Of a DNA stretch of 25,901 nucleotides, positions 1,786 through 18,420 are shown in pieces. Source of the stretch: a virus (taxonomy: Duplodnaviria; Caudoviricetes). A program made the position numbers and the translations under genes. The notes beneath the pieces are model-generated. The model was not told the DNA's origin and ran no database searches. It saw only the letters and a program-made list of their open reading frames with translations. The stretch's first letter is position 1, and every line of letters starts with the position of its first letter. Location of the stretch: positions 1 to 25,901 of IMG/VR virus record IMGVR_UViG_3300030106_002948. One strand, given 5' to 3'.

Positions 1786-1805
1786 TCAGGTTAAAATTAA
1801 CTCAA
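1786..1805. promoter_or_regulatory. Palindromic site, copy 3
   Basis: TCAGGTTAAAATTAACTCAA abutting the GAGGTGA RBS. Confidence 0.8.
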
Positions 1806-1847
1806 GTCTCATTTGGTGGCACCGCTCGGATGCCACCTTTGAAACTT
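1804..1847 (-). other. Long interrupted RNA hairpin (candidate RNase III processing site)
   Basis: Minus: AAGTTTCA-AA-GGTGGCA-TCCGAGCGG-TGCCACC-AAA-TGAGACTT. Confidence 0.55.
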
Positions 1848-2023
1848 TAGTCGTCGCAGAGAACGACCATCGACCCAAGCCCGATCAACGGGGCGAAGAA
1901 GCCGATGGTCAGAAGTATGTGGCCTTGCTGGGCCGCTTGCTCAGGTGCGTATGCCACAATGAAGGGCAGGGAACACACCAACACGGTGCAAAGCACCAAG
2001 GTTATGAAAGCGAAGAACCGCAT
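1847..2023 (-). CDS. 58-aa membrane protein with two predicted TM helices (not in ORF track)
   Basis: MRFFAFITLVLCTVLVCSLPFIVAYAPEQAAQQGHILLTIGFFAPLIGLGSMVVLCDD. TAATG overlap with the upstream gene and fills the gap exactly. Confidence 0.75.
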   Translation of the reverse strand: MRFFAFITLVLCTVLVCSLPFIVAYAPEQAAQQGHILLTIGFFAPLIGLGSMVVLCDD

Positions 2024-2376
2024 TATTCAACTCCCATGTAGTAAAGTCGTTCTTCGATGCGGGTGCGAAGTTCCGCGTATGCGATTTTGGCTGCGATGCT
2101 GTCATAAGTGACGTTCTCGCCAAAACCGCCGCATTCCTCGATAAACGCCTCGCCGTTCTCGGTGTTGCAATTTTGGCAAATGGCGTGAGCCTTGTGGTAG
2201 TAAATCACATGCTCGCACGCATCTGCGTGCTCATGTACGAGATCAAGCGCTAAATCAATCTCCGTGAGTCCTTCAAAAGCTTCGCCGCCGTATTGCTTAA
2301 CCTCTTCCATGATATCGCGAGCCGCTGCGGCGGCGTACTGATCAAGTTGGTGATCGTTTTTGATTGTGTCGCTCAT
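2023..2376 (-). CDS. Acidic Ocr (T7 gp0.3)-like protein, putative DNA-mimic anti-restriction factor
   Basis: 117 aa with about 24 D/E versus 8 K/R by hand count. LDLVHEHADACEHVIYY and SIAAKIAYAEL resemble Ocr HDAIHMAADNAVPHYY and RILQARIYEQL. Early-operon position. Confidence 0.55.
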   Translation of the reverse strand: MSDTIKNDHQLDQYAAAAARDIMEEVKQYGGEAFEGLTEIDLALDLVHEHADACEHVIYYHKAHAICQNCNTENGEAFIEECGGFGENVTYDSIAAKIAYAELRTRIEERLYYMGVE

Positions 2377-2387
2377 GTCTCACCTCT

Positions 2388-2407
2388 TCAGGTTAAAATT
2401 AACCCGT
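2388..2407. promoter_or_regulatory. Palindromic site, copy 4
   Basis: TCAGGTTAAAATTAACCCGT next to the GAGGTGA RBS. Confidence 0.8.
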
Positions 2408-2408
2408 C

Positions 2409-2459
2409 AACAATTGACGGACAAACGCACCAGTCAAATGCGCTTGCTGGTCAACTATC
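2409..2459 (-). other. Long interrupted RNA hairpin (candidate RNase III processing site)
   Basis: Minus: GATAGTTGAC-CAG-CAAGCGCATT-TGACT-GGTGCGTTTG-TCC-GTCAATTGTT. Several G-U pairs work only on the minus strand. Confidence 0.55.
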
Positions 2460-2466
2460 ACGGCTC

Positions 2467-2488
2467 AGGGCGGGCCGAAGCCCGCCCT
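2467..2488 (-). terminator. cUUCGg-tetraloop hairpin
   Basis: Minus AGGGCGGGC-TTCG-GCCCGCCCT just after the stop of 2499..2717; no U-tract. Confidence 0.5.
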
Positions 2489-2498
2489 TCCCCCGAAA

Positions 2499-2717
2499 TC
2501 AGTAATTGTAAGTGATGTCGTTAACATGAGTAATCGTGTGCTCATCGATGAGGTCTTTCACTTTTTCTGCGAAAGCGTGCGCGTCTTCCTCTGAGCAAGC
2601 GAGTACGCGAATCGATTGGTACGTCTCAGGGTGTCCGTTTAAATCTTCCAGCGCCACGTCGTAAACATTGCTGCCGTCAGATAGTTTGTGCCTCGCGACG
2701 TGAATGTTGATATCCAT
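2499..2717 (-). CDS. Hypothetical protein (72 aa)
   Basis: ORF in operon orientation with TAATG coupling and a purine-rich RBS. Confidence 0.7.
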   Translation of the reverse strand: MDINIHVARHKLSDGSNVYDVALEDLNGHPETYQSIRVLACSEEDAHAFAEKVKDLIDEHTITHVNDITYNY

Positions 2718-2881
2718 TAGATTCCCCCCTTGTGCTTGGGGTGGCGGCGGAAGGAGCCACGCCCCTTGCGAGGCGCAACTTTCTTTTGCTGGAACTGCCC
2801 GCCTTGTAGCGCTGAAGCTATGGGCGAGCGGTGCTTGAGCGCATTAAACCGGCGCTCTTCGGCTTTCGATGTAAACTTCAT
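2717..2881 (-). CDS. arfA: ArfA-like alternative ribosome-rescue factor (54 aa, not in ORF track)
   Basis: MKFTSKAEERRFNALKHRSPIASALQGGQFQQKKVAPRKGRGSFRRHPKHKGGI aligns by eye with the E. coli ArfA core [32 protein letters not shown]. ATGA and TAATG overlaps on both sides. Confidence 0.7.
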   Translation of the reverse strand: MKFTSKAEERRFNALKHRSPIASALQGGQFQQKKVAPRKGRGSFRRHPKHKGGI

Positions 2882-3411
2882 GCTAGTGTCACCTTCCCAT
2901 TTTTGATTACGAGTTGAACCTTGCCGCTCCTCTTGGGCGCGGCCTTGCGAGCCTTGCGGTCTACCGTGACCACAAGGAAGACCTTCTTTCGGCGGCCCCA
3001 GTATTCCGCTGGGGTATCGCCCTCTGGCTTAGTGCTTTGATCGAAGACCAGCCCATCGACGTATGCCTGAGCGTGGCCCCCTGTGATGAGCATGTAAGCG
3101 CCGTTTTTGGGCAGGTCGCGCACTGCATTCCTGAGAGTGCAGCGCTTGACCCGCTCGTTGAGGTCGGCGTCGATGCGAGGGTTGAGACCGGCATGGTCGA
3201 GCGCCTTGAACAGGTCGCCTCCCTCCGGGTCTCGCATGCTGCCGAAGCGCGGGTTCCTCGTCCCACCCTTCCACTTGGGGCCATACCCGCAAAGCTTGCG
3301 GATATTGTTCATAGATTGGTGCAAGCTAATGCCAGCGAGCACCGCAACGCTTGTGGGTCCGCATATCGGGGCGCTGCTGTCCACGCCCTGTGGTTGCTTA
3401 TATTCAGTCAT
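2878..3411 (-). CDS. Papain-fold (C39-like) cysteine peptidase
   Basis: N-terminal CGPTSVA (candidate catalytic Cys), then GHAQAYVDGLVFD (His, Asp); basic C-terminal tail. Confidence 0.65.
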   Translation of the reverse strand: MTEYKQPQGVDSSAPICGPTSVAVLAGISLHQSMNNIRKLCGYGPKWKGGTRNPRFGSMRDPEGGDLFKALDHAGLNPRIDADLNERVKRCTLRNAVRDLPKNGAYMLITGGHAQAYVDGLVFDQSTKPEGDTPAEYWGRRKKVFLVVTVDRKARKAAPKRSGKVQLVIKNGKVTLA

Positions 3412-3422
3412 AGTCAGTCACC

Positions 3423-3442
3423 TCGGGTTAATTTTAACTTGA
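3423..3442. promoter_or_regulatory. Palindromic site, copy 5
   Basis: TCGGGTTAATTTTAACTTGA overlapping the GAGGTGA RBS. Confidence 0.8.
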
Positions 3443-3486
3443 GCCTACGCGGTGCCACCACTCGGGTGGCACCTGACAGGGTCAAG
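3438..3486 (-). other. Long interrupted RNA hairpin (candidate RNase III processing site)
   Basis: Core GGTGCCACC-CGAGT-GGTGGCACC with outer CCTG/TAGG and CTTGA/TCAAG pairings. Confidence 0.55.
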
Positions 3487-3488
3487 AA

Positions 3489-4148
3489 TTACGCGGCGTC
3501 CTTCATCTCCGCGCTGTTGATGGCGTCCACCAAGGTCGCGGCGACATCCGCCGCACCGGGGAGGATCAAAGCGACGGCGTCGAGTAGCACCTGCGCGGCG
3601 TCGTCGTCGGCGACAGTGCCAGTCGATACCCGCTTGCCCGTCACGGTGATGTCACCAGCCTTCGCACCCGCTGCCTTGAGGGCGGCGATTGCGAGGGCCT
3701 GAGCCGGGGTCCGCTCTTCCTTGGGGTTGAGCAAGGCCACCAGTTTGGATTGGGTGGTGATCTCAAGGGCGTCGAAGGTGGCCGAGATTTCTTGCGTGAA
3801 GTTGCCGACATTGCTGTGGCGGTCAGCCGCCTCGACGGCGTTGCCGAATTCGGCGTGGCGAGCAAACTTTATGGCGTTCTCCGCGAGGAGTTTCGCCTTG
3901 GCTTCTTTCATGCCCATGTCCATGATCATCTGGCGGAAGCGACCAGCGACGACTTTGCGGCCCTTGAAGTTCTTTTCGTCAAGGCCAAAAGACTTCGCGA
4001 CGACTGCGAGATGTGCAATTGTGAAGACCTTGTTGGTCTCAGGGTTGAGCTTCTCGCGGAGGTCCGCAATCTCAACCTCTTTGGTCTGTCCGAGAACGAA
4101 CTCGGTGTGGGCGGCGTCGAAGAAAATAGCTGCAGGGGACTGTGTCAT
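3489..4148 (-). CDS. Hypothetical protein, first gene of the leftward operon (219 aa)
   Basis: Long ORF with GAGGTGA RBS; no family recognised. Confidence 0.8.
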   Translation of the reverse strand: MTQSPAAIFFDAAHTEFVLGQTKEVEIADLREKLNPETNKVFTIAHLAVVAKSFGLDEKNFKGRKVVAGRFRQMIMDMGMKEAKAKLLAENAIKFARHAEFGNAVEAADRHSNVGNFTQEISATFDALEITTQSKLVALLNPKEERTPAQALAIAALKAAGAKAGDITVTGKRVSTGTVADDDAAQVLLDAVALILPGAADVAATLVDAINSAEMKDAA

Positions 4149-4167
4149 GGTATCACCTCATGTGTGT

Positions 4168-4237
4168 GTGTTTCGGCCATGCTTGGCCCAAGGCGCAGGA
4201 TTGCGCTCATCAGCGGTGCAGCGTCAGCACCGGACAC
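4168..4237 (-). ncRNA. Type III hammerhead ribozyme, variant with branched stem II
   Basis: Minus: GUGUC^-CGGUGC(UGACGCU)GCACCG-CUGAUGA-GCGCA(AUCC)UGCGC-CUUG-GGCCA(AGCA)UGGCC-GAAACAC. Complete CUGAUGA/GAAA/GUC core, 6-bp stem I and 4-bp stem III. Predicted cleavage between 4233 and 4232. Confidence 0.8.
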
Positions 4238-4240
4238 GTT

Positions 4241-4508
4241 GACCGGGCGGCGGTGAAGTTGGCGACCGTGTGTCGCCCTCGCGTTCAATTGCTAGGCTGA
4301 AGGTAATGCGGCATCGCCACCGTCCCGGTGTTCCCCGCCTCTGGTTTCCTACGCCAGCGTCGGCGGGTGTTTGTTGTACCAGCCCGGCGATTTACAAGAG
4401 ATGTCCGGGTCTGCGGGGCGCTCGTCTGGTTGGCCCTTGCCCCTCTGGGGGGTCTTCCTTCTGGGATGTTTGGGACTTTGCGCCCCGGCCCCTCAGCGGC
4501 CTTGGCCC
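4241..4508 (-). ncRNA. Highly structured 5' leader or candidate ncRNA
   Basis: Nested inverted repeats 4242-4247/4324-4329, 4251-4255/4318-4322, 4261-4266/4272-4277, 4334-4339/4362-4367, 4383-4387/4405-4409 and 4414-4421/4480-4487; no convincing ORF. Confidence 0.45.
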
Positions 4509-6097: not shown

Positions 6098-6136
6098 TAT
6101 AAGGGTACAGTTCTGAATTTGTTCGGGGTTGATCCG

Positions 6137-6271
6137 TTGGCTAAGAAGGTTGAGCACAAAGCTAATCTCACAAAAAACAAAAAGACCTCAATTGGTCGGT
6201 CTGCGTTTAGTCGTCCCATCAACAAGCACAAGCGGAAGAACTGGAAGAGGTACAGAGGACAGGGCAGATGA
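6137..6271 (+). CDS. 44-aa basic phage protein of the '...YRGQGR' C-terminal family (not in ORF track)
   Basis: TTG start; MAKKVEHKANLTKNKKTSIGRSAFSRPINKHKRKNWKRYRGQGR; ATGA overlap with the next gene. Confidence 0.7.
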   Translation: MAKKVEHKANLTKNKKTSIGRSAFSRPINKHKRKNWKRYRGQGR

Positions 6272-17896: not shown

Positions 17897-18196
17897 ATGG
17901 CGGCACGGAAAAAACGCGGAACTGGCATGAAAGGTATGACCATCAAGGGTGGTCATAAGCGCCCTACTAAATCTGGCGCTGGCATGACAGCCAAGGGAGT
18001 GGCTAAGTACCGTCGCCAAAATCCGGGTAGTAAACTTAAAACTGCTGTCACCGAAAAGAAGCCTAAGTCAAAATCTAGGGCTGCTCGTCGCAAATCCTTC
18101 TGTGCTCGTAGTAAGGGCCAGATGAAAAAGTTCCCCAAAGCTGCAAAAAACCCAAATAGTAGATTGCGCCAAGCAAGGCGTAGATGGAGATGTTGA
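17897..18196 (+). CDS. Small highly basic protein (DUF6321-like)
   Basis: G.GMTAKG...RRKSFCARS.G...NSRL..ARRRW.C. Confidence 0.7.
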   Translation: MAARKKRGTGMKGMTIKGGHKRPTKSGAGMTAKGVAKYRRQNPGSKLKTAVTEKKPKSKSRAARRKSFCARSKGQMKKFPKAAKNPNSRLRQARRRWRC

Positions 18197-18420
18197 TGGC
18201 TGCTAGAAAAAAAACGACTGCAAAAAAGAAACCTTCTGCTAGAAAATCTAAAAGTAGGGTGAATGAGGCGGGTAATTATACAAAGCCCGCTATGCGTAAG
18301 CGTTTATTTAGCAGAATAAAATCAGGCGGTAAGGGTGGAAAGCCGGGTCAGTGGAGTGCTCGAAAAGCTCAAATGTTAGCGAGCGCTTATAAAAAGGCTG
18401 GTGGTGGGTACAGAGACTAA
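18196..18420 (+). CDS. Small basic protein resembling the N-half of DUF5872
   Basis: YTKP..R...KGGKPGQWSARKAQMLA..YKKAGGGY; start at the TGATG overlap. Confidence 0.7.
   Translation: MAARKKTTAKKKPSARKSKSRVNEAGNYTKPAMRKRLFSRIKSGGKGGKPGQWSARKAQMLASAYKKAGGGYRD

Follow-up and report, generated by a model that had tools for sequence, protein, structure and literature searches.

The analysed window, a stretch of 25,901 nucleotides that spans positions 1 to 25,901 of the virus record IMGVR_UViG_3300030106_002948, carries on its minus strand a real and conserved gene for a 54-residue protein which, judged from its sequence, is a homologue of the ribosome-rescue factor ArfA from E. coli residue 14 onward. 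As two defining features of canonical ArfA are lacking, we file the protein as a variant and not as a member of ArfA; it probably works like ArfA, and with slightly better than even chances we consider it a ribosome-rescue factor that is free of tmRNA feedback. The gene and its immediate surroundings are composed as follows:

2717..2881, minus strand: 54-aa ArfA-like gene (P0001) with its own TAA stop codon; product with a pI of ~12 and 15 Lys/Arg versus 2 Asp/Glu residues
2889..2897, minus strand: Shine-Dalgarno-like GGAAGGTGA within the 3′ end of the upstream gene, 7 nt ahead of the ATG
2878..3411, minus strand: upstream coupled gene, 177 aa, of an unnamed phage family with a Cys/His/Asp pattern; at the same place in two other viral loci (L001 and L002)
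2499..2717, minus strand: downstream coupled gene, 72 aa, no family match; different genes at this place in L001 and L002
3426..3439, no strand assigned: copy of the palindrome GTTAWWWTTAAC just ahead of the ribosome-binding site heading the three-gene unit
2468..2487, minus strand: GC-rich hairpin, looped by TTCG, that immediately follows the three-gene unit; U tract absent from the minus strand

The overlap of the ArfA-like gene with its upstream neighbour reads ATGA, and that with its downstream neighbour TAATG. The first-pass annotation had correctly described an ORF of 54 residues, coupled at both ends, with the quoted motifs and with a stop (the TAA seen in the translation) four residues past the KH motif. 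Two further viral contigs contain full-length homologues (96% and 85% identity), each preceded by the same upstream gene, and three protein clusters match the protein at 87–89%. Most differences from the relatives fall on third codon positions (17/22, 22/32 and 15/22), and the gene is under purifying selection, with dN/dS values of 0.071, 0.098 and 0.121 in a codon comparison with two related phages. The exact protein sequence is present in the ESM Atlas and a close homologue carries the JGI name ArfA, from which it follows that gene callers do detect this gene. The ORF is short, of low complexity and below the Pfam cut-off, as might be expected of a chance basic ORF, but this reading is refuted by the codon comparison (dN/dS ~0.1), is further opposed by the coupling at both ends, the ribosome-binding site and the 1326 relatives that a search with a 7-sequence phage alignment retrieved among 1687 candidates, and retains next to no probability.

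The features within the gene on which its assignment and its control depend are:

2729..2794, minus strand: stretch matching the Pfam ArfA profile, comprising F30 (F25 in E. coli), the strand region that faces RF2, KGRGSF and the KH motif
2828..2881, minus strand: 18-residue N-terminal segment without the G9/I11 pattern of the gammaproteobacterial activation minidomain, shared with the closest relatives only
2724..2744, minus strand: weak hairpin of 6 bp (−8.7 kcal/mol) surrounding the KHK codons, no U tract

ArfA (PF03889) is the sole Pfam family matched by the protein (E 3.3e-5, profile positions 23–44 of 44). In the family search which the first-pass annotation had proposed, the E-value thus favours ArfA, whereas the 23.7 bits lie under the cut-off of 25.5. 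The homology claimed there is also borne out by a profile built from the window protein and 16 close relatives: this 17-sequence profile matches six E. coli ArfA sequences with E-values from 6e-7 to 1.5e-6, ungapped over residues 14–48, and in the PDB finds nothing besides E. coli ArfA below E 0.48. The register is such that the number in the window protein equals the E. coli ArfA position plus five. Among the matches listed, PF03889 is present in 110 of 120 homologues, and the ESM Atlas neighbours of the protein are ArfA-bearing clusters; NCBIfam and a single-sequence PDB search returned no match. The RF-1 domain of Pfam, i.e. the catalytic GGQ domain of ArfB and the release factors, has no match in the 54 residues, and the GGQ at residues 27–29 was rejected as a catalytic motif because its letters vary even in the closest relatives (P0002–P0004). 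DUF7230 (PF23876) is matched by 2 of 17 relatives (best E 0.019) and not by the window protein.

In a 35-column tree, a branch with a support of 100/99 separates the 13 gammaproteobacterial rows from the 37 rows of phages and alphaproteobacteria; within the latter, the grouping of the window protein with those of phages XM05 and RXM and with alphaproteobacterial genes is weak (80/79). The window protein exhibits the traits of a short phage/alphaproteobacterial ArfA-like subfamily, as delimited in this analysis, namely an NPxA-type helix start, an aromatic residue at position 25, Val or Ile at 30, P32, KGxGS and no G9/I11, with Ser in place of the usual N14. Two further candidates, L003 and a tblastn match of CRP-212 that lies within a long CDS, were excluded for want of clear homology.

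In E. coli numbering, the window protein retains L20, F25, Q27, K34, G35, G37, S38, an aromatic residue at 39, R41, K44 and H45 of E. coli ArfA (YhdL; PF03889), and KGRGSFRRHPKH matches the basic C-terminal loop KGKGS..R..KH in register. The KH motif is absent from many homologues, 16 of 51 viral cores having His at position 45. The protein ends at position 49, beyond the 46–48 residues modelled in ArfA structures and past the dead 40-residue form, and is slightly shorter than the natural active form of ~55 residues (PMC8012679).

Unlike E. coli ArfA, the protein shows no N-terminal minidomain pattern. G9, I/V11, A15 and A18, each found in 28/28 members of the gammaproteobacterial set, are replaced by Ala, Lys, Pro and Ser; L19 and L24 are changed to Ala and Gln, leaving F25 as the only retained member of the L19/L24/F25 patch, and V29 and E30 are changed to Lys and Val. 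Many relatives possess just 3–6 residues ahead of the N14 position. In E. coli, the N-terminal minidomain's ordering is coupled to RF2 opening, and L19, L24 and F25 bind Trp319 of RF2 (PMC5378476), while E30 contacts G530 (PMC8874680). E. coli ArfA was reported not to bind RF2 off the ribosome, and its A18T variant to be inactive and its A18C variant active (PMC4245945), so that Ser at position 18 need not be fatal. By alignment, conservation is accordingly lacking for the minidomain that activates RF2 and for two of the three residues in contact with RF2, and the balance of kept and lost residues suggests a docking half that is intact and an activation half that is non-canonical. A comparable constellation is found in BrfA (YqkK) of Bacillus subtilis, which is likewise small and basic with a KH motif and a non-ArfA N-terminus, recruits RF2, and activates it with this different N-terminus; no BrfA chain is among the 7 PDB matches of the 17-sequence profile up to E 10. 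Rescue systems of this kind are adapted to their own species.

The control of canonical ArfA depends on a non-stop message, and a long hairpin before or over the stop codon was found in 73 of 74 distinct enterobacterial and in 20 of 20 other gammaproteobacterial sequences. The window gene contains neither this RNase III hairpin nor the hydrophobic tail, as the first-pass annotation had stated. Its weak hairpin coincides with the position of the terminator-like hairpin of alphaproteobacterial genes; against synonymous shuffles it gives p 0.05 over one span and 0.24 over another, and in two relatives 0.88 and 0.58. A relic terminator was therefore rejected, the hairpin being neither significant nor conserved. 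Given the own stop codon and no significant hairpin, there is no sequence basis for tmRNA feedback on this gene. The same state prevails in phages: 39 of 49 distinct viral sequences (from 80 loci kept of 130 found, with 2 open-ended loci dropped and duplicates merged) carry no hairpin of the gammaproteobacterial kind, 8 carry a terminator-like one before the stop (6 of them from one close group) and 2 a weak one, and 33 of the 49 end within 20 codons or fewer after the motif lysine. Tail loss is thus the usual condition in phages and not a special trait. Hairpin significance against synonymous shuffles covers 18 of 26 loci, and the U-tract rule of the scoring missed L208 and phage RXM, both of which were read individually. 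In phage XM05 (L006:2519-2650), a hairpin of −26.5 kcal/mol lies over the same codons, with no U tract and with the stop right after; this arrangement could represent an intermediate regulatory state.

Relatives of the short form also reside in chromosomes of alphaproteobacteria, for which a published survey listed arfA in 0 of 2,376 genomes (PMC11633108, Table 1). A profile of the short form matches 11 of 401 alphaproteobacterial genomes, two of them already known from a DNA pattern scan, and the chromosomal genes sit among housekeeping genes. Of 18 chromosomal loci, 3 were missed by the motif rule and 15 scored; 8 were flagged with a terminator before the stop, and L208 is the ninth. These nine hairpins have energies from −23.6 to −28.3 kcal/mol and p ≤0.003 against synonymous shuffles in 9/9 tested. 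They belong to related genomes and are not independent events, and seven of the nine loci stem from a DNA pattern that fixes the arginine codons of the 5′ arm and not the 3′ arm. In all of them (L171, L185, L187, L201-L203, L206-L208) the strong hairpin lies over the RRPKHK codons and ends before the stop, and the neighbouring genes include prs, tauE and mscS; in L171 and L201 the hairpin is followed by a weak U tract. The in-frame terminator of BrfA resembles this arrangement (PMC6881298), which the window gene does not have. The nine members share the short N-terminus and the change of E30 to Val or Ile, and the window protein scores 42.7 bits on their model versus 23.2 on the gammaproteobacterial one. 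As the non-stop design is a hallmark of back-up rescue factors (PMC8012679; for BrfA, PMC6881298), its presence suggests that the short form still serves as a back-up in rescue under the control of tmRNA, and no other indirect evidence speaks as strongly for ribosome rescue by this form.

A second chromosomal state is encountered in an order of small low-GC genomes (G120 sample; 1.2–1.5 Mb, 24–30% GC), which appears to be SAR11-like by size and GC content. Matches were obtained in 39 of its 101 genomes, 30 of them strong, and the 12 copies read (L205, L234-L244) all have their own stop, no significant hairpin and no KH motif, and end 11–16 codons after the motif lysine. Tail-less copies are consequently cellular too, and the view of tail loss as a phage trick, taken in the first-pass annotation, does not hold. 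Directly after the stop codon of one of these chromosomal mini-ArfA genes a TPP riboswitch begins (L205:1404-1491). In a comparison aimed at mutual exclusion with ArfB, the latter scored over the cut-off in 1 of 10 short-ArfA genomes versus 45 of the 151 genomes sampled from the class (p 0.28 in a Fisher test; the tally includes the unpublished genome G045). In the mainly open-access literature, supplements aside, we found no description of a short alphaproteobacterial ArfA-like subfamily.

The main rival to a rescue function is that of a channel plug or RF2 decoy, which would occupy the mRNA channel, perhaps hold RF2 closed as in ArfA(A18T), and thereby block tmRNA entry, park ribosomes or damp host translation. 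A docking half that is kept next to an activation half that is not would be in line with such a role; ArfA(A18T) indeed binds and recruits RF2 without release (PMC8012679), and channel-binding inhibitors exist in eukaryotes (PMC8874680). We nevertheless judge it rather improbable, since chromosomal members with the same short N-terminus keep the non-stop design, a strong match in 30 of 101 genomes of a streamlined order with an own stop in 12/12 copies read is hard to square with an inhibitor, and the related gene gp30 of Pelagibacter phage HTVC027P is high in the late phase of infection, in which the demand for translation is greatest. Alternatively, the protein might rescue with another partner by recruiting RF1 or either release factor, as described for ArfT, which functions with RF1 or RF2 (PMC6881298). 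The hydrophobic patch that explains RF2 specificity is down to one residue; yet this residue, F25, is the main RF2-specific contact and is Phe or Tyr in 9/9 alphaproteobacterial members of non-stop design and in 99 of the 107 proteins matched, and we assign this variant of rescue a lower probability than the plug. Scarcely more credit, and in our estimate slightly less, is due to a basic nucleic-acid-binding peptide with a non-ribosomal role, e.g. in DNA condensation in the head. In L061, L078, L080 and L081, the homologue of a small basic protein encoded at 18184-18420 of the window (phrog_17747) carries an ArfA-like motif fused at its front, and in L020, L022, L028 and L053 such motifs have small basic genes of the head region as neighbours; the window gene, in contrast, is situated in a leftward cassette away from the structural genes, the spacing of KGxGS, F25 and KH is identical to that in ArfA, and the cellular copies are surrounded by housekeeping genes.

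Genes for terminase, portal and capsid are present in the window, a linear virus record with an estimated completeness of 45%. Its capsid is 61–74% identical to that of seven named phage records including HTVC027P and HTVC023P, the top matches being labelled cyanobacterial (74%), gammaproteobacterial (66%) and Pelagibacter (61–65%). A relative matches 18 phage records, mostly with weak E-values, and as 17 of these phages infect alphaproteobacteria, the host is presumably an alphaproteobacterium. Of five related named phages, HTVC027P has the ArfA-like gene, CRP-901 shows a partial match of doubtful status and no match was found in the other three; the gene is accessory. It belongs to a leftward cassette of small genes that faces away from the terminase, apart from the structural genes, and on account of this position its expression would be early. 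The palindrome GTTAWWWTTAAC recurs at 10 window sites (147, 1407, 1789, 2391, 3426, 4610, 5164, 13038, 19059 and 22485; 16 strand matches versus 0.01 expected) and is a candidate phage promoter or operator; most copies either immediately precede a ribosome-binding site or overlap the end of a gene, and they occur in the leftward cassette as well as in the structural region. GC-rich hairpins stand between the gene units of the cassette (172-191, 1816-1838, 2468-2487 and 3450-3475), often just upstream of GTTAWWWTTAAC. The upstream 177-aa gene (2878-3411) falls into large unnamed phage clusters, with a weak lead to Peptidase_C39 (19% of one cluster). On the plus strand, 6119-6271 encodes a basic 50-aa ORF with a YRGQGR motif at its end and counterparts in L001 and L002; it has no match in Pfam or PHROG. 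Scans of the whole window for tRNA/tmRNA and Rfam families returned nothing. For 1800-4300, no RNA data set containing this stretch was listed, which has no bearing on expression. The 106 neighbouring ORFs of 32 viral loci (drawn from 115 picked, near-duplicates excluded) include no common partner and no RNA-repair family in PHROGs, most being without a match; Cr30 alone has RNA ligases near its gene. The counter-defence purpose proposed in the first-pass annotation finds no support in these neighbours.

Phage ArfA-like genes have been named from annotation before, namely gp30 of HTVC027P (PMC12753301) and g10 of Citromicrobium phage vB_CbaS-RXM (PMC8953757), and several Brevundimonas phage GenBank records are annotated ArfA; the novelty implied by the first-pass annotation is thereby lost. 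The main text of the paper on HTVC023P-type genomes (PMC9599517) makes no mention of a phage ArfA, and a search of the mainly open-access literature, supplements aside, found no functional test of any phage ArfA. Both gp30 and g10 belong to the same short subfamily (N/S-P-x-A helix start, aromatic 25, V30, P32, KGxGS). HTVC027P has a capsid and a terminase related to those of the window (65% and 54%), and gp30 resembles the window gene in having its own stop and no hairpin, but differs by the absence of KH and by another N-terminal extension. In g10, unlike in the window gene, a strong hairpin (−24.7 kcal/mol, p 0.003) lies in frame and well ahead of the stop codon.

Returning to the favoured rescue function free of tmRNA feedback, we propose the following scenario: The short ArfA homologue would be produced from a message with its own stop codon, its amount being set by phage transcription and not by overload of tmRNA. 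Where ribosomes have stalled on broken messages, the peptide likely docks in their empty mRNA channel, a step well supported by homology. By analogy to the ArfA structures, the basic C-terminal loop would bind 16S rRNA in the channel and the F30-containing strand would pair with RF2 of the host. RF2 might then be switched on without the canonical N-terminal minidomain, which is the weakest step, and the ribosome be freed. Such a reaction may allow ribosomes, being scarce, to remain in use during the turnover of host RNA by the phage. HTVC027P infection gives cells without detectable rRNA (PMC11066056, in passages that do not mention ArfA), and gp30 is highly transcribed at 3 and 12–15 h after infection (PMC12753301); both observations fit a recycling of scarce ribosomes. 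A more far-reaching version, possible although on the whole doubtful, would be that the short phage/alphaproteobacterial form, including that of streamlined marine lineages reported to be ArfA-less, activates a release factor without the canonical N-terminal switch, and that the phage copy, freed from tmRNA feedback, outcompetes tmRNA, thus recycling ribosomes and sparing phage proteins from tagging during the destruction of host RNA.

The bare occurrence of an ArfA-like gene in a phage is not new; the part worth testing is a short subfamily with three regulatory states, which provides natural pairs with and without non-stop control and is carried by the cultured phage-host pairs Cr30-Caulobacter, RXM-Citromicrobium and HTVC027P-Pelagibacter. 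If the protein were an inhibitor, it would constitute a bacterial mRNA-channel plug derived from a rescue factor. If it rescues, a core of ~35 residues would be enough to re-purpose a release factor, and ArfA-type rescue would extend into the alphaproteobacteria, the class in which the survey had found 0 of 2,376 genomes with arfA (PMC11633108).
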